Assembly: GCA_949745755.1 (NCBI GenBank)
Contig: CATJZL010000065.1
Span: 1,185 to 65,184, forward strand
Reading direction: 5' to 3'
DNA: 64,000 nucleotides
From: an uncultured Bacilli bacterium
Lineage (GTDB): Bacteria > Bacillota_I > Bacilli_A > RF39 > UBA660
This document shows, one piece after another, positions 6,645 through 27,201 of this stretch. Position 1 is the stretch's first letter. Each line of letters begins with the position of its first letter. The position numbers were made by a program, and so were the translations under genes. The notes beneath the pieces were generated by a model that searched no databases, was not told where the DNA came from, and was given only the letters and a program-made list of their open reading frames with translations.

Positions 6645-6900
6645 AAATCACTCCTTATCACAAAAAAAGCTATCATAATATAAGGACGAATAATTCCGCG
6701 ATACCACCTTATTTTATAATAACTAAATTATACACTCAAATAGTTAACGCCTATCTACGATTACATTTACATATCAACATAATAGTTCAAAAGCCATAAT
6801 CATTATATAGTAATATTTCTCTCACACCATAAAGAAACTCTCTTAAATTACAAATATAATAACCTCTTTCTCATCACATTTGATATAAACAGAATAACAT
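6645..6900 (-). promoter_or_regulatory. T-box riboswitch leader upstream of metG.
   Basis: A 267-bp untranslated leader. Its minus-strand sequence contains AGGUGGUAUCGCGGAA (plus strand about 6703..6720), which matches the T-box consensus AGGGUGGNACCGCGG. A U-tract lies just before the metG ribosome-binding site. Confidence 0.5.
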
Positions 6901-6908
6901 AAAATCAC

Positions 6909-7433
6909 TTATTCCTCAATATATTTAACAAAAATATCTAAAATCAAATTTAAAAAAACCTTATCCATCTCATGAACTTCATCATCTCCAAAAAATACAA
7001 CCCCCCCAACTACATCACCATTTGTAATCATACTAGAAAAAATAAAATGACTATTTATTTCTTTTTTATCAGTTAAAGAAAGCATTGTATTATTAACATA
7101 TTCCTTTTTCCTCTCCTCCATAAAATGATAAATATCATTAGAAATATTTTTACCTACAAAAGACTCTATATCTCCCCCAGCACCACATATAATCTTATCT
7201 CTATCACATATTAATATATTTTTTGCAGTAAGAACACTAATTTTATCAATAAATATTTTAAAAACATCACGAATATCCTCTAAAGTAGAATATTTCTTTA
7301 AAATAATATTCTCATTACTAATATTAATCTCTAAAGGATCACCATCCTTTATTCTTAAAGTTTTTCGAATTTCCTTTGGAATAACTATTCGCCCTAAATC
7401 ATCTATTCTTCTTACTATACCTGTTGTATTCAT
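6909..7433 (-). CDS. spoVT: Stage V sporulation protein T: AbrB/MazE-type N-terminal DNA-binding domain plus a GAF-like C-terminal domain.
   Basis: A 174-aa ORF. Its N-terminus, MNTTGIVRRIDDLGRIVIPKEIRKTLRIKDGDPLEI, closely matches the SpoVT/AbrB swapped-hairpin domain. The length and the mfd-proximal position match B. subtilis spoVT. Confidence 0.75.
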   Translation of the reverse strand: MNTTGIVRRIDDLGRIVIPKEIRKTLRIKDGDPLEINISNENIILKKYSTLEDIRDVFKIFIDKISVLTAKNILICDRDKIICGAGGDIESFVGKNISNDIYHFMEERKKEYVNNTMLSLTDKKEINSHFIFSSMITNGDVVGGVVFFGDDEVHEMDKVFLNLILDIFVKYIEE

Positions 7434-7589
7434 ACATTCCTCACTTTCTATATATCTATATATAGCATGAGTAAATATATTTTTTTTATACGATAAAGAT
7501 ATATTTTTTAATAATTTTATTCAAAACAAAACTTTATCATAATGAATATCTCCATCAAAATTATAAATTACTATATACAAATAATAAAT

Positions 7590-8228
7590 TTACTTAATCT
7601 TTACAAACTTTTTCATATGTTCAATATTAAAATTTCTCAAATCTTCCATATGAGAATACATAGCAAGAATAGAAAACGTATTTTCAATATTATGTTCACT
7701 TAAACAATCTCTTTTTGTTAAAGGAGAAAAAACATACTCATTTTCATACATTGCAAAATAATTTAATATTTCATTCTTTGAACTCAAAAGAATATTCTTT
7801 TTATAGATAAAACCTCTATCCAAAATTTTTTTACCAGAACGAACGGGTTTACCCGTTGACTGAAAAAAAGTCAACTCTTCATCTAAATATTGCTGTAAAA
7901 AAGAAATCGCTTGATCAAGCATGACTATAGTTTTAGGTCCCATAGACTTAATTTTCAATTTATCATCATAAGTTAAAGTAACATAATCATAAACATAAGA
8001 AAAAAAATCACAAACACGATGATCCCCAATACCTACTATAGGTAAATAAGACATAGGTATATCTTCCAATAAAGAAAAAATATCACTACAAATAACATCT
8101 TCCCTGTTTAAACATGTATGAATATAAGCACGTATATCTTTAACCTTAGAATGATTATTTATAATATAAAGTAATGCATTTAACTCATTGTTACTAAGTC
8201 CATCTATAAACTCTTTTATATTTTCCAT
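7590..8228 (-). CDS. Hypothetical protein of 212 aa, with no transmembrane segment and no recognised domain.
   Basis: A long ORF 21 bp downstream of the preceding gene, with an AAGGA ribosome-binding site. Codon usage and composition match neighbouring genes. No family recognised. Confidence 0.55.
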   Translation of the reverse strand: MENIKEFIDGLSNNELNALLYIINNHSKVKDIRAYIHTCLNREDVICSDIFSLLEDIPMSYLPIVGIGDHRVCDFFSYVYDYVTLTYDDKLKIKSMGPKTIVMLDQAISFLQQYLDEELTFFQSTGKPVRSGKKILDRGFIYKKNILLSSKNEILNYFAMYENEYVFSPLTKRDCLSEHNIENTFSILAMYSHMEDLRNFNIEHMKKFVKIK

Positions 8229-8249
8229 TTCACACTCATCCTTCTAAAA

Positions 8250-8891
8250 TTATAAATTATTAATTCTTGAATTCATCTTAGTAAAAATATATCTTTCCCC
8301 CTGTTCTTTAACCCCATTAATCAAAGTTGTATCCTTAACCAGTATCTTAAGATTGATATTTTCCATAAATTGTTTTTGATAAGTAATTCTAAAATATTTT
8401 GATAATTCTTCATATATATCCTGAAAACAACTCTCATCAAAAAAAAGAACAGATATATTTTCTATCAAATACTTAGAAATATCCTCGCTGACAACTTTTT
8501 TTAAATGACTATTAATTTTTTTATTAATAACAGACAACTGTTTTTTAGTAATCCTAATAATATCATATTCTTTTTTAGGAGAAAAAGACTCTATATCCTG
8601 AATTAAGTTATTTACTCGAAAATCTTGAATAAACAAAATATCATTACAAATAGCAGTCCTATATTCTAACAATAATTCATCTACTATTTCTGTATTTAAT
8701 ACTATATCTTTCTTTTTAGCAACAGAAAGAAATTTATTTTTAATAACATCCATAGAATCAAGAGGTGGTTTTTTAATTAAACTCATTATATCATCCTCAA
8801 TCAAAGAAATGGTATTATTACGAATAATCTCACTTACTGCCAAAATATAATTATTAAAAGATTGTCTTTTTATTTCATCTAATTCTGTCAT
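8250..8891 (-). CDS. Hypothetical protein of 213 aa with no recognised domain, first gene of a two-gene operon.
   Basis: A long ORF. A possible TTGACT-N17-TATTCT promoter lies in the 105-bp gap after mfd. No family recognised. Confidence 0.55.
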   Translation of the reverse strand: MTELDEIKRQSFNNYILAVSEIIRNNTISLIEDDIMSLIKKPPLDSMDVIKNKFLSVAKKKDIVLNTEIVDELLLEYRTAICNDILFIQDFRVNNLIQDIESFSPKKEYDIIRITKKQLSVINKKINSHLKKVVSEDISKYLIENISVLFFDESCFQDIYEELSKYFRITYQKQFMENINLKILVKDTTLINGVKEQGERYIFTKMNSRINNL

Positions 8892-8996
8892 TCTATCACT
8901 ATCCTAATAGTTAAAGAATAACGTAACATAAAATAGAAGTCAAGATTTTAATAAAAAGAATGTATCTTTACAAGAAAGAAAAAATATATTTTCCTA

Positions 8997-11900
8997 TTAT
9001 TGAATTTTTAAATTCAAAATAAGTTCCAATAAATCAATCAGGTAATAAAGAAAATGCTTTTCCAATTTTATTGTATCAAGAATAATAACTAAATTTTCTC
9101 CTCGCTTTTGAAACCGCAACATATTTGTAATTTTAAAGGACTCAGTAAATAATTCATCCACATTTATCTGACTAACAATATCTCTTAAAAATATAAGTTC
9201 GATAGAGTTTTTAGTTTGGCGAACCTTATTTAGATTAATTTTTTTAGCAAGATGTTCAAACCATTCTTCTAACATATAAATCTCCATATCCTCATCTACA
9301 AAACCAAATCGATCTTCTAATTCTTTTTTTACCTCATCAAACTTCATTTGACTATCAATTGTATTGATTTTTCTATGAATTTCTATTTTCAAATCTTCAG
9401 ATTCTACATAACTGTCTTTGATATGTGTACCTACATTTATCAAAGGATGACTTTCTTCCTCGAGCTCCTCCTCATTTATTCCCTTTCTTTTATTAACCTC
9501 TTGATTAAGCATACGAAGATAAAGATCAATTCCGACACTATCTATAAAACCAGCTTGCTCACTTCCCAAAATATCACCAGCTCCTCTAATAGATAAATCA
9601 CGTGTTGCAATAGAAAATCCACTTCCAAGTTCAGTAAACTCTTTAATAACATCTAAACGCTTAACAGCATTCTCGGTTAAACTTTTAAAAGGTTGATACA
9701 TTAAATAAGCATAAGCAAAACGATCACTCCGACCTACCCGACCACGAATTTGATATAATTGACTAAGACCAAATCGATCAGCATCTAAAATTATAAGTGT
9801 GTTTACATTAGGTATATCAATACCTGTTTCAATAATAGTTGTACAAATAAGTACATCATATTGATGATCAATAAATTTTAACATCCGATTTTCAAGTTCC
9901 TCTTTACTCATACGACCATGTGCATAAATAATACGAGCATCAGGTACAAGTTTCTGAATAGAAAAAACCTTTTCTTCGATATGTTCTACTCGATTAAATA
10001 AAAGAAAAACTTGGCCTTCACGAGATAATTCTTTATAAATAGCATCTTTAATAATTTGATCCTGTTCACTAAGAACATAAGTTTGTACAGGATATCGATT
10101 AACTGGTGGTGTTTCAATCAAAGAAAGACTACGAATTCCAGCCATAGACATTTGAAGTGTTCTAGGAATAGGTGTCGCGGAAAGTGTCAACACATCAACA
10201 TTTGTTTTATACTCTTTGATTTTTTCCTTATGTTTTACACCAAATCTCTGTTCCTCATCAATAATCAAAAGTCCTAAATCTTTAGGTTTAATTTGATCAT
10301 TTAAAAGTCGATGTGTCCCAATAACCATATCTATTGTACCATCAGCAAGACCTGCTAAAATAGTATGAGCCTCTTTAACTGTTGTAAACCGATTAAACAA
10401 TGCTATACGAACTGGGAAATCTCTAAAACGAACCAAAGCATTCTTATAATGTTGATTAGAAAGAATCGTTGTTGGACATAAAAGTAAAACTTGTTTAGAA
10501 TCCAAGATAGCCTTAAAAGCCGCTACAAAAGCCACCTCTGTCTTACCAAAACCAACATCACCACATAATAATCGATCCATTGGACGAGTAGACTCCATAT
10601 CTTCTTTAATCTGCATAATAGCACGAGTTTGATCAGCTGTAAGAGTATAAGGAAAATTTTCTTCAAATTGCTTTTGTAAATCATTATCCTTAGAAAAAGC
10701 ATACCCCTTTCTACTTTCTCTCTCAGCATAAAGCCTAATAAGTTCATCAGCCATATCAGCCACTTTTTTACTAACCCGCAACTTAGTCTTTTGCCACTCA
10801 TTACCATTTAATCTATTAACCTTAGGAACTATACCTTCCTTACCAGAATATTTATATAAATAATCTATTTTTTCAACAGGTATATAAAGTTTATCCTCAC
10901 CCTGATAAATAACTTCTATATAATCCTTTAAAATATTCCCAATACTAAGTTTTTTAATACCTTTATATATACCAATACCATGAACATTATGAACAACATA
11001 ATCTCCAACCTCTAATTTATTAATATCTGTAATTTTACTAGAATATTTAAATTTAGTCTTATATTTTTTATTTTCTTCATGAGATAAAAATAATTCCTTA
11101 TTTGTAATAAAAACATAATTTCCATAAATAAATCCTTCATTTAAATCATGAACAATCAAATTAACAATAGAAGGATGAATATGTTCTGTATCTGTTTCTA
11201 TACACTTACTATTTATATTTTTCCTTACATTCTTTACTTGATAATCTTTTAGACAAAGAATAACCGTTTTTCCTTCTTTTAAACATTTAGAAATAAAACT
11301 ATTAATAAGATCAGTCTTTTCATTAAAAGAAGATAAACTCTGCACATTATAATCATATAAATCTCTATTACTATTCATATTATCTAAAGAGAAATAATGA
11401 ACAACTTCCCCCGTCTTTATATGAGATAAATCATGCATATATTTTCCTGTAAAAGTAATATCTGTATGACTTTGATATTCAAATATTTCCTCCAATATAG
11501 ATTGATAACTTACCTCTAACTGACTATAATCCTTATAAAAAACAATAGGATGAGAAAGATAATTAGAAATACTAGAAACTTCCCCATTTGTATAATTTGG
11601 TAAATATTTTTGCTTAAATCTTTCTTCTTCTAAACATTCTTCATCAATCAAAAACTCAGAATTAGGATAAATAGTAATAGAAGATATAGTAGATATAGAT
11701 TTTTGTGTCCCACCATCAAAATAACGAATAGACTCAACCTCATCACCAAAAAATTCAATACGGATAGGCCTATCTTGCCCAATAGGAAAGACATCAATTA
11801 CAAAACCTCTAAGTCCAACTTCTCCTGTATTTGTAACAAGAACTTCTTTCTTATAACCAGAAGCAATCAATTTAGAAAAGAAATCTTTTGGAGAAATCTC

Positions 11901-12296
11901 ATCTCCTACCTGAATAGAAACAACACTAGATAAATACTTTTCTTTAGAAGGCAAAAATCGTAAATATCCCATTAAGTTAGTAATAAGAATAGACTTTTTC
12001 GATGAAATACTAAGTGATTGCAAAACTTCCATACGACTGATAAGTAAATCTGGACTAATAGCCAAGGCTTCACTTGTCAAAAAATCATCCATTCCAAATA
12101 AATAGACATCTTCTGTAAAAGAATTCACATATGAATAAAGTTGATTCGCCTCATATAAGGAGGGAACAACCACCAATAAATTTTGATTTTTTTTCTTTAA
12201 AAGACTCGCTAAATAAAGTCCAAAAAAAGGAGAATTAAGTCCAGTTATATTACTTTTATATACATCTATAATATCTAAAATATTCACTAAAATCAC
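8997..12296 (-). CDS. mfd: Transcription-repair coupling factor.
   Basis: A 1099-aa ORF with a UvrB-homology N-terminus, an RNAP-interaction domain and superfamily-2 helicase motifs (GDVGFGKTEVA, DEEQRFG). Confidence 0.9.
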   Translation of the reverse strand: MILVNILDIIDVYKSNITGLNSPFFGLYLASLLKKKNQNLLVVVPSLYEANQLYSYVNSFTEDVYLFGMDDFLTSEALAISPDLLISRMEVLQSLSISSKKSILITNLMGYLRFLPSKEKYLSSVVSIQVGDEISPKDFFSKLIASGYKKEVLVTNTGEVGLRGFVIDVFPIGQDRPIRIEFFGDEVESIRYFDGGTQKSISTISSITIYPNSEFLIDEECLEEERFKQKYLPNYTNGEVSSISNYLSHPIVFYKDYSQLEVSYQSILEEIFEYQSHTDITFTGKYMHDLSHIKTGEVVHYFSLDNMNSNRDLYDYNVQSLSSFNEKTDLINSFISKCLKEGKTVILCLKDYQVKNVRKNINSKCIETDTEHIHPSIVNLIVHDLNEGFIYGNYVFITNKELFLSHEENKKYKTKFKYSSKITDINKLEVGDYVVHNVHGIGIYKGIKKLSIGNILKDYIEVIYQGEDKLYIPVEKIDYLYKYSGKEGIVPKVNRLNGNEWQKTKLRVSKKVADMADELIRLYAERESRKGYAFSKDNDLQKQFEENFPYTLTADQTRAIMQIKEDMESTRPMDRLLCGDVGFGKTEVAFVAAFKAILDSKQVLLLCPTTILSNQHYKNALVRFRDFPVRIALFNRFTTVKEAHTILAGLADGTIDMVIGTHRLLNDQIKPKDLGLLIIDEEQRFGVKHKEKIKEYKTNVDVLTLSATPIPRTLQMSMAGIRSLSLIETPPVNRYPVQTYVLSEQDQIIKDAIYKELSREGQVFLLFNRVEHIEEKVFSIQKLVPDARIIYAHGRMSKEELENRMLKFIDHQYDVLICTTIIETGIDIPNVNTLIILDADRFGLSQLYQIRGRVGRSDRFAYAYLMYQPFKSLTENAVKRLDVIKEFTELGSGFSIATRDLSIRGAGDILGSEQAGFIDSVGIDLYLRMLNQEVNKRKGINEEELEEESHPLINVGTHIKDSYVESEDLKIEIHRKINTIDSQMKFDEVKKELEDRFGFVDEDMEIYMLEEWFEHLAKKINLNKVRQTKNSIELIFLRDIVSQINVDELFTESFKITNMLRFQKRGENLVIILDTIKLEKHFLYYLIDLLELILNLKIQ

Positions 12297-12859
12297 CTAT
12301 TCTTTTTATTATATTTGCTAACTAAAACAGAAAAATCCTCATAAAAATATTCATCAAGTATTTTTGAAATAGTAATAGAAAGTTCATCATAAGTAGAAAT
12401 CTCTTCCTTACTAAATTTAGATAAGACAAAATCTTTCATATGAATATTTCTATCATTACAAATACCAATTTTTATTCGCTTATAAAGATTAGTTCCTATA
12501 TGAGTTTCTATATTTTTAAGTCCATTATGTCCTCCACTACTACCCTTAGACTTAATCTTAAAATTACCAATACAAATATCCAAATCATCACTAATAACCA
12601 AAAGATCATCCACACTAATTTTAAAGAAATCCATATATTTGCGAACAACCTCTCCAGATAAATTCATATAGCTTTGTGGTTTCAAAAAAATAACTTTCTC
12701 TTGATTAATAACTATATCCTGATATAAACCATTAAACTTACATTTATAATCATATAAATTTTTACCTTCTAAATATTTATCAACCATAAAAAAGCCAATA
12801 TTATGACGTGTATTTTCATATTCACATCCTGGATTTCCAAGCCCTACAACTAACTTCAT
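12293..12859 (-). CDS. pth: Peptidyl-tRNA hydrolase.
   Basis: A 188-aa ORF starting MKLVVGLGNPG..YENTRHNIGF. It overlaps the mfd start by 4 nt. Confidence 0.9.
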   Translation of the reverse strand: MKLVVGLGNPGCEYENTRHNIGFFMVDKYLEGKNLYDYKCKFNGLYQDIVINQEKVIFLKPQSYMNLSGEVVRKYMDFFKISVDDLLVISDDLDICIGNFKIKSKGSSGGHNGLKNIETHIGTNLYKRIKIGICNDRNIHMKDFVLSKFSKEEISTYDELSITISKILDEYFYEDFSVLVSKYNKKNR

Positions 12860-12876
12860 AAATATTTCTCCATTCT

Positions 12877-13716
12877 CTACTTTTCTTTTTCCTCTAAATA
12901 TTCTTTATAAATAATAGATTTTGCTACTCCACGCTCTTTTGCAACCCTCTTTATAGCTTGCATCTCATCCATACCATCAGAAAGATAAAGTTTAATATGC
13001 GAAAGAATGGATAAATCATAATAAGATTCCTTTTCACACCCTGACACAACAAGAACATATTCTCCTTTAATAACTTTCATCTCTTTTAAACAACTAGAAA
13101 TAGGTCCACGAACAATTTCCTCATGAACTTTTGAAATCTCTCGACTAATAGAAACATAACGATCACCAAATACCTCCAACATATTAGATAAAGTTTTAAT
13201 AATACGATGAGGTGCTTCATAAAAAATAAGTGTATAAGGAAATTTTTTTAAACTTTCAAGCTCATTTTTCTGTTTACTACTTTTTATATTTAAAAAACCA
13301 TAATACAAAAAGTGATTTGCATTAATACCAGAGGATATAAGTGCAGGAACAAAAGCTGTAGCACCTGGAAGTCCTACTACATTATAACCATTTTGTATAA
13401 TATATTTACAAAGAAGATAACCAGGATCACTAATAATAGGACTACCTTGATCTGTAATAAGCGCAATATTTTTATCATTATTAAGTTCATTTAAAACAAA
13501 ATCCTTGATTTTATCTTCATTAAATTCATGACAACTAACCAATCTTTTAGAGATATTATAATGCCTTAATAATGGATAGGAAACCCGAGTATCTTCACAT
13601 AAAATAAAATCAACAAAAGATAAAATTGAAAGAGCACGTTCTGTTATGTCTTGCAAGTTTCCAATTGGAGTAGGAACCAAATATAAAGTAGCACGATTAT
13701 CATAACTTTTTTGCAT
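12877..13716 (-). CDS. rsmI: 16S rRNA (cytidine1402-2'-O)-methyltransferase RsmI, of the tetrapyrrole-methylase fold.
   Basis: A 279-aa ORF with LYLVPTPIGNLQDIT and CEDTR motifs. Its position matches B. subtilis yabC. Confidence 0.8.
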   Translation of the reverse strand: MQKSYDNRATLYLVPTPIGNLQDITERALSILSFVDFILCEDTRVSYPLLRHYNISKRLVSCHEFNEDKIKDFVLNELNNDKNIALITDQGSPIISDPGYLLCKYIIQNGYNVVGLPGATAFVPALISSGINANHFLYYGFLNIKSSKQKNELESLKKFPYTLIFYEAPHRIIKTLSNMLEVFGDRYVSISREISKVHEEIVRGPISSCLKEMKVIKGEYVLVVSGCEKESYYDLSILSHIKLYLSDGMDEMQAIKRVAKERGVAKSIIYKEYLEEKEK

Positions 13717-14447
13717 TACATAACCTCCTCTAAAAGCATTCTATATTCTTCTGTTTCTTGTCGATTTTCATCATACATAACAAAAGGTTTATCTATAATA
13801 AGTCCACTCCTACCACACTTTATACCCTCAATATAAAATAAACTTGGTGAAGTCGTAATATGATCATAAACAAACCGAATATACTTAGGCTCTATTTTAT
13901 ACTTTCGTAGCAATTCCAGTACTTCCATAAATCTAGAAACACGTTGAACCAGGGCAAAAACACCACCTTCTTTTAATAATTGAAAGGCGATTTTAATCAC
14001 TTCCTCTAAAGTAATAAAAACCTCATGTCTAGCAATAGCTTTATGAATATCCATATTTTTAGTAGATTTCTCTTCATTTTTAAAATAAGGAGGATTAGAA
14101 AGTATCAAATCATATGTATTATATCTTTTTTCAATCAAAAAATCTTTCATATCCATATTATACAAAGTAATAAATTTTTCTTTACAATTATAAATAACAC
14201 TTCTTAAAGCCATATCCACTAAATCTTTTTGAATTTCAACTCCATCAATATGACTTTTAGTTCTAAGAGATAAAATAAGGGATACTATCCCATTTCCACA
14301 TCCTAGATCAAGAATTTTCTTAGTTCTACATCGAACATTTACAAAATTAGCAAGAACTATACTATCAATAGAAAAACAAAAATAATCATAATTTTGATAA
14401 ATTTTTAAATCATACCCTAATACGTCATTCAACATTTCCATAATCAA
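13716..14447 (-). CDS. Class I SAM-dependent methyltransferase, tRNA(m6A37) TrmN6/YabB-like.
   Basis: A 243-aa ORF with a DLGCGNGIVSLIL SAM motif and a NPPY motif (LSNPPYFK) typical of N6-adenine and N-methyltransferases. Its position matches B. subtilis yabB. Confidence 0.55.
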   Translation of the reverse strand: MIMEMLNDVLGYDLKIYQNYDYFCFSIDSIVLANFVNVRCRTKKILDLGCGNGIVSLILSLRTKSHIDGVEIQKDLVDMALRSVIYNCKEKFITLYNMDMKDFLIEKRYNTYDLILSNPPYFKNEEKSTKNMDIHKAIARHEVFITLEEVIKIAFQLLKEGGVFALVQRVSRFMEVLELLRKYKIEPKYIRFVYDHITTSPSLFYIEGIKCGRSGLIIDKPFVMYDENRQETEEYRMLLEEVM

Positions 14448-15205
14448 TCTCTATAAGTAACACAAATCACGCTTTTATCAGGCAATTCTACATCAAGAGT
14501 CCCTTTAAAAATATCAACATGAATTACTTTTCCCTTTCCTTTTTCTGTATCATAATCACTATACAACTTAGGTGCACCTCTTTTTAATTGAATATATTGC
14601 TCATCTTCATACTTCAAACAACAAAGTAACCGTCCACAAAGACCATTAATTTTTGATGGATTAAGTGCTAAAAATTGATTTTTAGCCATATTAATTGAGA
14701 CACTATTAAAATCTGTCAAAAAAGAATTACAACATAAAAATAATCCGCACGGTCCTATCCCACCAATTCTCTTTGCTTTATCTCGAATACCAATTTGCCT
14801 AAGTTCTATTCTAGTTTTATACTTCTCTGCTAATTTTTTAACAAGTTGTCTAAAATCTATTCTTGCTTCAGCAACAAAAAGAAAAAACAATTGTTTTTTA
14901 TCAAAGGTATAGTAACAATCAACGATATTCATATCTAAATTCAACCTTTTTACTATTTTTTTTGCCTCATCTACAGCAAGAAGTGCATCTTTTCTATTAT
15001 TCTCGATAACTTTCAAATCATTACTATTAGCTTTTCGAACAACAGAAGCTTCAGAAAAAATAGAACTTTCTTCTATAACTTGTCCACTAAATAATACCTT
15101 ATTATCAAGAATAATAACAGTATCACCCTTAACTAATTTTAGATTTTTATAATCAACCACAACCTCTTCAAAACTGCCATCTAATAATACCTTAACTGAA
15201 CTCAC
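14444..15205 (-). CDS. ricT: PSP1-domain protein RicT/YaaT-like (stage 0 sporulation and RNase Y regulatory complex).
   Basis: A 253-aa ORF. The N-terminus VKVLLDGSFEEVVVDYKNLKLVKGDTVII and a Cys-rich C-terminus (CGLFLCC, CGRLLCC) are typical of the PSP1 C-terminal domain. It sits immediately after holB, as in B. subtilis. Confidence 0.55.
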   Translation of the reverse strand: MSSVKVLLDGSFEEVVVDYKNLKLVKGDTVIILDNKVLFSGQVIEESSIFSEASVVRKANSNDLKVIENNRKDALLAVDEAKKIVKRLNLDMNIVDCYYTFDKKQLFFLFVAEARIDFRQLVKKLAEKYKTRIELRQIGIRDKAKRIGGIGPCGLFLCCNSFLTDFNSVSINMAKNQFLALNPSKINGLCGRLLCCLKYEDEQYIQLKRGAPKLYSDYDTEKGKGKVIHVDIFKGTLDVELPDKSVICVTYRD

Positions 15206-26733: not shown

Positions 26734-27201
26734 TTACATTACCTTATTTACATCAGATCTTCTCTCATTTAATAAATGGACTAAACGAGTCGAACGATAA
26801 ATCTGATTTTCTACCACTCGATAAGAGATAGGTACAACAAGCTCCATATCATTTTCAAAAATAATTCTAGTAGTATTAAATTGTTCAGCAATATAACTCT
26901 TAATTTTATTAACAGCTATCCAAATACACCTTTTATCAGTTGGACTCATAGTAGGAAAAAAAACAATATTTAAATTATCCTGAATAACAATAGGTAATTT
27001 ATAATTAGCACCAATAATAGCCTTAGCCCCTGCTCTCCTACCCTCATAACTACTGCCAAAATATTTGCAACTATGATCTAAAATATCATAACTAGAACAA
27101 GGTATAATATAATCTTGAGAATCCTCAAGTATTTTTGTTTTTCCATCTTCCATAGATATAACAGCAAGAGTTCCTTTATTAATTTCATATTCATTTTTCA
27201 T
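26734..27201 (-). CDS. comK: ComK-family competence transcription factor.
   Basis: A 155-aa ORF. SCKYFGSSYEGRRAGAKA, IVFFPTMSPTDKRCIWIA and ELVVPISYRVVENQIYRST align with the ComK signature blocks SCRFFGSSYAGRKAG, IFLFPTLSSTRPQCGWIS and ELPISYNSFENQVYRT. Confidence 0.7.
   Translation of the reverse strand: MKNEYEINKGTLAVISMEDGKTKILEDSQDYIIPCSSYDILDHSCKYFGSSYEGRRAGAKAIIGANYKLPIVIQDNLNIVFFPTMSPTDKRCIWIAVNKIKSYIAEQFNTTRIIFENDMELVVPISYRVVENQIYRSTRLVHLLNERRSDVNKVM

Follow-up and report, generated by a model that had tools for sequence, protein, structure and literature searches.

An order-wide resident and a recent arrival between mfd and a spoVT-like gene in an uncultured RF39 bacterium

The window analysed here is a 64,000-nucleotide (nt) stretch of contig CATJZL010000065.1, from an uncultured Bacilli bacterium of the order RF39. 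Two open reading frames (ORFs), encoding proteins of 213 and 212 amino acids (aa) and called ORF213 and ORF212 below, lie in it between mfd and a spoVT-like gene. A reading made from the sequence alone had described them as an uncharacterised two-gene operon. The main outcome of our analysis is a correction, in that neither gene belongs to an evidenced new kind of system. ORF213 is an old, order-wide resident of the site behind mfd, ORF212 is a recent arrival there, and the apparent "operon" came about by the chance relocation of a gene and does not represent a new two-component system. On the minus strand, an rsmI-like methylase gene is followed by pth, mfd, ORF213, ORF212, the SpoVT-like gene, a T-box leader, metG and tatD, with the following features.

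12293-12859, minus strand: pth
8997..12296, minus strand: mfd, transcription-repair coupling factor (Pfam UvrB_inter/CarD_TRCF_RID/DEAD/Helicase_C/TRCF)
8915..8943, minus strand: predicted sigma-A-type promoter of ORF213 (TTGACT, 17 nt, TATTCT; a consensus match)
8250..8891, minus strand: ORF213, ATG start, 213 aa
8229..8249, minus strand: ORF213-ORF212 spacer of 21 nt, holding the ribosome-binding site (RBS) of ORF212, AGAAGGATGAG
7590..8228, minus strand: ORF212, ATG start, 212 aa
7463..7491, minus strand: forespore-type (sigma-F/G-like) promoter match upstream of spoVT (GTATA, 17 nt, CATGCTA)
6909..7433, minus strand: SpoVT-like regulator gene (Pfam MazE_antitoxin/AbrB N-domain and SpoVT_C)
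6679-6883, minus strand: T-box leader upstream of metG (Rfam RF00230, 93.9 bits against a gathering score of 93; ordinary)

On the B. subtilis 168 map, spoVT follows directly after mfd. The coordinates of the two ORFs and their 21-nt separation were confirmed, and both lie on the minus strand, which the sequence-only reading had left unstated. The absence of a transmembrane segment from both products also held, the maximum Kyte-Doolittle 19-residue means being 0.93 for ORF213 (at residue 133; there is no hydrophobic N-terminus either) and 1.28 for ORF212. The GC content of the two genes, about 0.21-0.26, is not anomalous against the 0.20-0.34 of the first 16 kb of the window, in agreement with the host-like composition reported earlier. 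Both proteins and all members of both alignments were scanned against the family libraries Pfam, NCBIfam, PADLOC and PHROGs, and only noise was obtained; the best matches, RE_ApaLI (E 0.012) and TerS_C (E 0.027), were far below cut-off and were not shared by homologues. Among PDB sequence profiles, nothing better than E 0.13 was found. BLASTP detected no similarity between ORF213 and ORF212, and paralogy was rejected. The statement that neither resembles anything nameable is therefore upheld by these scans, and both proteins are uncharacterised, with no assignable family or relative of solved structure.

A homologue search for ORF213 in 5.8 billion protein clusters yielded 621 homologues of about 205-235 aa, all without a Pfam domain and with "hypothetical protein" as their sole name, given by the annotation of metagenome-assembled genomes (MAGs). 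By tblastn on GTDB species representatives, 150 ORF213 loci were confirmed and 80 were kept; together with four fetched earlier, these are the 84 related loci referred to below. The 80 kept loci all come from uncultured low-GC gut "Bacilli/Tenericutes/Mycoplasmatota" MAGs, and among the carriers are Mycoplasma sp. CAG:877 and Candidatus Faecimonas, the latter corresponding to GTDB genus CAG-877 in the order RF39 (PMC8035907). ORF213 follows mfd on the same strand in 84/84 loci, a few of which have inserted genes between the two, and the usual order is pth-mfd-ORF213-(spoVT)-metG-tatD. The window likewise has ORF213 directly downstream of mfd on the same strand. Nine loci that have no spoVT at the site (L010, L011, L066, L067, L069, L070, L075, L082 and L084) keep ORF213. 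The ORF213 family is a conserved core gene, fixed after mfd, with its named members in the GTDB order RF39.

Conservation of the protein itself was also examined. The ORF213 product of the window can be aligned over its full length with 56 homologues, to which it is 43-77% identical, and it has the invariant residue in each of the 25 invariant columns of the 57-sequence alignment. Both family motifs, NNTxSL..DDI..L..PPLDSMD and KxLVKDTTLxxGxxEQxERxxFT, are present in it. Compared with L091, the nearest other species, the ratio of non-synonymous to synonymous substitution rates (dN/dS) was 0.11 for ORF213, indicating purifying selection, and 0.11-0.17 for its neighbours pth, mfd, spoVT, metG and tatD (mfd 0.11, metG 0.13), all figures being approximate with dS at 0.6-1.3, near saturation. 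ORF213 is a real gene and not a chance ORF, because it has this many homologues and is under such constraint.

The AlphaFold model of ORF213 is an all-helical bundle (predicted local distance difference test, pLDDT, 91.9), and a fold comparison with the PDB gave no specific match. The invariant columns cluster in helix 1, in the PPLDSMD loop and in the C-terminal half of the last helix (KILVKDTTLINGVxEQGERYLFT), and no recognisable catalytic motif was found in the protein. We propose that ORF213 would be a cytoplasmic helical bundle that is expressed constitutively and serves a housekeeping function specific to its lineage, most probably through binding to another protein or to a nucleic acid. 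The likely binding face would be formed by helix 1, the PPLDSMD loop and the part of the long last helix just named, because they are the most conserved part of the protein.

The upstream and downstream regions of ORF213 were searched for transcription signals, from which it is predicted to have its own sigma-A-type promoter and usually its own terminator. The pattern TTGAC-16/18-TAnnnT occurs upstream of ORF213 in 70 of 79 related loci, compared with 2% of 130-nt windows drawn at random from those loci. The median distance from the end of the -10 element to the ATG is 24 nt, and in 54 copies of the motif the -10 is extended by TG. In the window, the sigma-A-type site is found within the 105 nt that separate mfd from ORF213. 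Behind the ORF213 stop codon, 46/80 loci have a hairpin with a T-run after it, and no terminator-like hairpin was found after ORF213 in the window. The forespore pattern was detected in only one of the 79 ORF213 upstream regions, in a scan that covered the forespore type alone among the sporulation-sigma patterns. For spoVT, on the other hand, the 80 nt upstream of the gene (L005-L084) contained G[TA]ATA in 67/67 regions and the strict -35/-10 forespore pattern in 18/67, against a background of 0.9%. This motif resembles the sigma-G consensus of B. subtilis, and the RBS GAAAGTGAGGAAT stands behind it. Because ORF213 has its own sigma-A-type pattern and terminator-like hairpin and spoVT has a forespore-type motif, these patterns indicate that ORF213 would normally be monocistronic and vegetatively expressed, outside the spoVT unit.

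ORF212 has a different distribution. No relative of it is encoded in any of the 84 related loci. An exhaustive HMMER search of 1.84 billion representatives gave only 15 ORF212 clusters at 25-56% identity, a profile search of a larger collection gave 10 clusters of the family, and a metagenome scan for the family found nothing. A check of the 64-kb window for a second copy, which covered ORF212 alone of the two genes, found none. Five distant relatives with clear context are divergent from a femAB pair and are followed by a small convergent gene and then by trmB; for a sixth, on a 1.7-kb contig, the convergent small gene alone is visible. ORF212 thus represents a tiny, rare and fast-evolving orphan family whose usual place is between a divergent femAB pair and trmB. 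The protein is cytoplasmic and mostly helical, and it is the product of a real gene, because there are about 15 distant homologue clusters and the fold is predicted with confidence. The small convergent ORF behind the distant relatives (L085, L096, L098, L099 and L100) encodes 68-84 aa without a Pfam hit, and downstream of trmB at the same locus lie conserved unannotated genes of about 218, 299-337 and 98-100 aa.

Between ORF213 and spoVT, a copy of ORF212 was seen in three lineages, namely the window's species, L087 and the sister species represented by L091 and L093. In the window's species it is present in three conspecific contigs and is 100% identical. The L087 copy is 50% identical to that of the window and is followed by a SpoVT N-terminus that is 96% identical to the window's. 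The sister-species orthologue (L091:5669-6313, L093:3007-3650) carries an in-frame TAA at codon 148, and this stop is present in contigs that come from three sequencing runs within a single study. The sequence beyond this TAA still aligns in frame, and because frame and similarity persist past it, the orthologue appears to have been inactivated recently. Within this small group, ORF212 identity is 50-55% compared with 76-85% for the flanking genes, and its dN/dS is 0.55-0.64 against the 0.11-0.17 of its neighbours (approximate, as above), so that non-synonymous change at this site is three to five times faster in ORF212. The family also outpaces trmB, by a factor of two to three, where it lies at the femAB-trmB locus. 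We suggest that ORF212 may be an accessory gene that the cell can do without, derived from the femAB-trmB locus by relocation or duplication, which would ride on the ORF213 transcript and not act as a partner of ORF213.

The surroundings of ORF213 are variable in other species too. The ORF213-spoVT slot encodes a membrane-anchored protein of 384 aa in L006; in L033 it has a 162-aa ORF beside a gene for a predicted multi-pass membrane protein, and the latter recurs, with others, in L053. In close relatives, the mfd-ORF213 spacer holds an rve-family transposase or a GNAT acetyltransferase with small ORFs (L002:3900-4868; L001:4678-5605). These cases show that both spacers around ORF213 are insertion-tolerant. 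ORF212 is one of several lineage-specific occupants of a variable slot, because other species have what appear to be unrelated genes there.

A 17-nt direct repeat, AAAATTATAAATTAYTA, flanks ORF212 at 7557-7573 and 8246-8262, with 16/17 positions identical. One of the copies overlaps with the stop codon of ORF213, the second is found 17 nt beyond that of ORF212, and p for such a flanking placement was roughly estimated at about 0.01-0.02, with eight similar repeat families in 1.7 kb. The repeat could be the footprint of an insertion, but it is probably a chance product of AT-rich DNA, because a neutral repeat should not outlast the divergence of the gene to 50% identity, and the sister species L091 has no equivalent repeat flanking ORF212. 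A phage or mobile origin of the pair was rejected; neither ORF213 nor ORF212 has relatives among viral contigs, and no mobile-element genes adjoin the pair in the window.

Taken together, ORF213 and ORF212 are probably unrelated, and their common transcript in this species would be due only to a recent gene relocation. Their histories are separate, because ORF213 stands in all 84 related loci without ORF212, whose relatives sit elsewhere, alone at femAB-trmB; this was the outcome of the co-occurrence check that the sequence-only reading had called for. Its two-gene operon is upheld in part. The two genes are probably co-transcribed in the window's species, because the gap is 21 nt, an RBS is present in it and no promoter- or terminator-like site lies between them; the 130 nt before ORF212 contain no promoter pattern. 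As a unit, however, the two are not conserved. Several points weigh against our interpretation. No terminator splits ORF213, ORF212 and spoVT in the window, and read-through with some regulatory coupling may occur. The promoter and terminator calls for ORF213 are pattern matches only, and the dN/dS figures are affected by the near-saturated dS. The fold comparison covered the PDB, and relatives whose structures are unsolved may have escaped it. Finally, we infer the possible partner-binding mechanism of ORF213 from its conservation and fold.

Among the alternatives, we considered whether ORF213 is an RF39 sporulation accessory protein, working with or controlled by SpoVT. The adjacent SpoVT-like protein scored 59.5 bits for Pfam SpoVT_C, 41.1 bits for MazE_antitoxin and 136 bits for NCBIfam spore_V_T, the last being below the equivalog cut-off of 235.9. 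In most loci ORF213 adjoins such a gene with its forespore-type promoter, a conserved element of about 45 nt lies between the two in many loci, and RF39 bacteria are predicted to be spore-capable with unusual regulation (PMC10868615). Against this, the predicted ORF213 promoter is of sigma-A type in most of the loci examined and the forespore pattern almost never precedes it, the gene usually has its own terminator-like hairpin, and it is intact in the nine loci that miss spoVT. The adjacency of pth, mfd and spoVT in Firmicutes is not known to be functional in itself. A sporulation accessory role, suggested earlier from the placement of the pair, is thus disfavoured for ORF213 by the vegetative type of its promoter and by its retention without spoVT, and we regard it as unlikely. 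The forespore-type promoter match on the RF39 spoVT homologue, in its own right, gives support at the level of sequence motifs for the predicted sporulation of RF39.

The element of about 45 nt, GGAAATATTTACCAAGGGAAAttTTGGGAATATTGaTTATAATA, is situated between the ORF213 terminator and the spoVT forespore-type promoter in many loci (L012-L083), about 60-110 nt upstream of spoVT (for example L019:6698-6745), and is absent from the window's subclade. It holds a palindrome, AAATATTT, and a GGrAATATT direct repeat, and it could be an operator or a second promoter. Rfam gave no match in ORF213, ORF212 or this element, and only the expected T-box upstream of metG was recovered.

ORF213 could also be an Mfd- or RNA-polymerase-associated factor, that is, a lineage-specific accessory of transcription-coupled repair or of transcription. 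Its adjacency to mfd is the only real argument for such a role, and the order of genes in this origin-proximal stretch is conserved for non-functional reasons. The matches of ORF213 to PRIN2 are within the range of generic helical-bundle hits, the protein is near-neutral (isoelectric point, pI, 6.0), and its promoter is predicted to be independent, which makes this role quite unlikely.

A broader reading, to which we give equally little credence, is that ORF213 is the founder of an RF39-specific family with a novel helical architecture and an essential cytoplasmic function, either as a partner of Mfd or RNA polymerase or as a vegetative regulator of sporulation entry. Such a regulator would possibly act through the control region of the neighbouring spoVT to gate the start of the unusual sporulation programme of RF39. 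If this were true, the strict conservation of ORF213 in a lineage with reduced genomes would mark a clade-defining innovation.

For ORF212, a small DNA-binding regulator with a helix-hairpin-helix (HhH) or RNA polymerase alpha C-terminal domain (alpha-CTD)-like domain was considered, since residues 55-110 resemble tandem HhH motifs by eye. The profile similarity to alpha C-terminal and (HhH)2 domains was not significant, leaving a resemblance only. In a comparison with the E. coli alpha-CTD the probability was 0.07%, the isolated segment 55-110 had no Pfam match, and the assignment was rejected. A regulator of this kind is improbable.

Least of all do the two genes appear to be a functional two-component module, whether toxin-antitoxin (TA)-like or a regulator with its partner. 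Like type II TA modules, they are adjacent on the same strand with a very short spacer, which holds an RBS and no promoter- or terminator-like site, and they stand beside a gene with an AbrB/MazE-fold domain; they are alike in size, and the pair is stable within the species. Unlike such modules, they match no recognised toxin, antitoxin or defence family (Pfam, NCBIfam and PADLOC), do not co-occur across genomes outside the window's small species group, and include in ORF213 a strongly constrained gene that is syntenic in all fetched loci and neither patchy nor mobile. Both proteins are about 212 aa long, and typical type II TA components are smaller. In addition, the sister-species ORF212 is interrupted by a stop codon and ORF213 there is intact. 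The missing co-occurrence has already largely refuted the module, and we consider the earlier TA-like proposal very improbable.

The relation of ORF213 to known proteins of the same position was also considered. In Clostridia, a gene for a PrsA-like/SurA-domain foldase lies between mfd and spoVT, the same position as that of ORF213. The chaperone domain of PrsA-like foldases is, like ORF213, largely helical, with N- and C-terminal helices that pack together. The hallmarks of this family are not seen in ORF213, which has no signal peptide or lipoprotein anchor, no parvulin peptidyl-prolyl isomerase domain and no SurA N-terminal domain. A PrsA-like identity, which the sequence-only reading had named as fatal to its own proposal, is therefore not what was found.

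ORF213 resembles the orphan families of uncultured, genome-reduced RF39 Bacilli in being a "hypothetical protein" found only in this lineage. It differs from other orphans of this kind in an unusual degree of conservation, a strictly fixed position and a confidently predicted fold that is unmatched in the PDB. Conserved hypothetical proteins like ORF213 are common in uncultured lineages. Among them it is somewhat conspicuous, being strictly conserved and fixed in position in an order with reduced genomes, and for these reasons it is a reasonable target for later study. RF39 is an abundant, uncultured order of gut Bacilli, and genes kept throughout it are likely to be important because its genomes are reduced. 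If the role of ORF213 can be defined, one clade-defining and strongly conserved protein would be added to the poorly understood biology of RF39.

The window as a whole is an origin-proximal region of a very AT-rich Firmicute, in which tadA, dnaX, recR, holB and a PSP1/yaaT homologue are present. The coding-strand polarity changes at about 30.1-30.9 kb, and the ORFs beside this switch look like the usual dnaA-dnaN-recF-gyrB-gyrA set, judged from size and order only. Behind tatD, at 661-1302 on the minus strand, lies another ORF of 213 aa, which has a 215-aa counterpart in L001 and L003 and no Pfam hit. Its product has a hydrophobic N-terminus (Kyte-Doolittle mean 2.84 at residue 12), is acidic (pI 4.5), and is unrelated to ORF213 and ORF212 despite its equal size. 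The PSP1/yaaT homologue (14444-15205) overlaps the start of a yabB-like methyltransferase gene (13716-14447), leaving no room for yabA, which in B. subtilis lies between the yaaT- and yabB-type genes. A full-length ComK homologue is encoded at 26734-27201 on the minus strand (Pfam ComK, E 1.6e-41), a few kb from the strand switch; it was unexpected in a genome-reduced uncultured gut lineage and hints that competence regulation has been retained.
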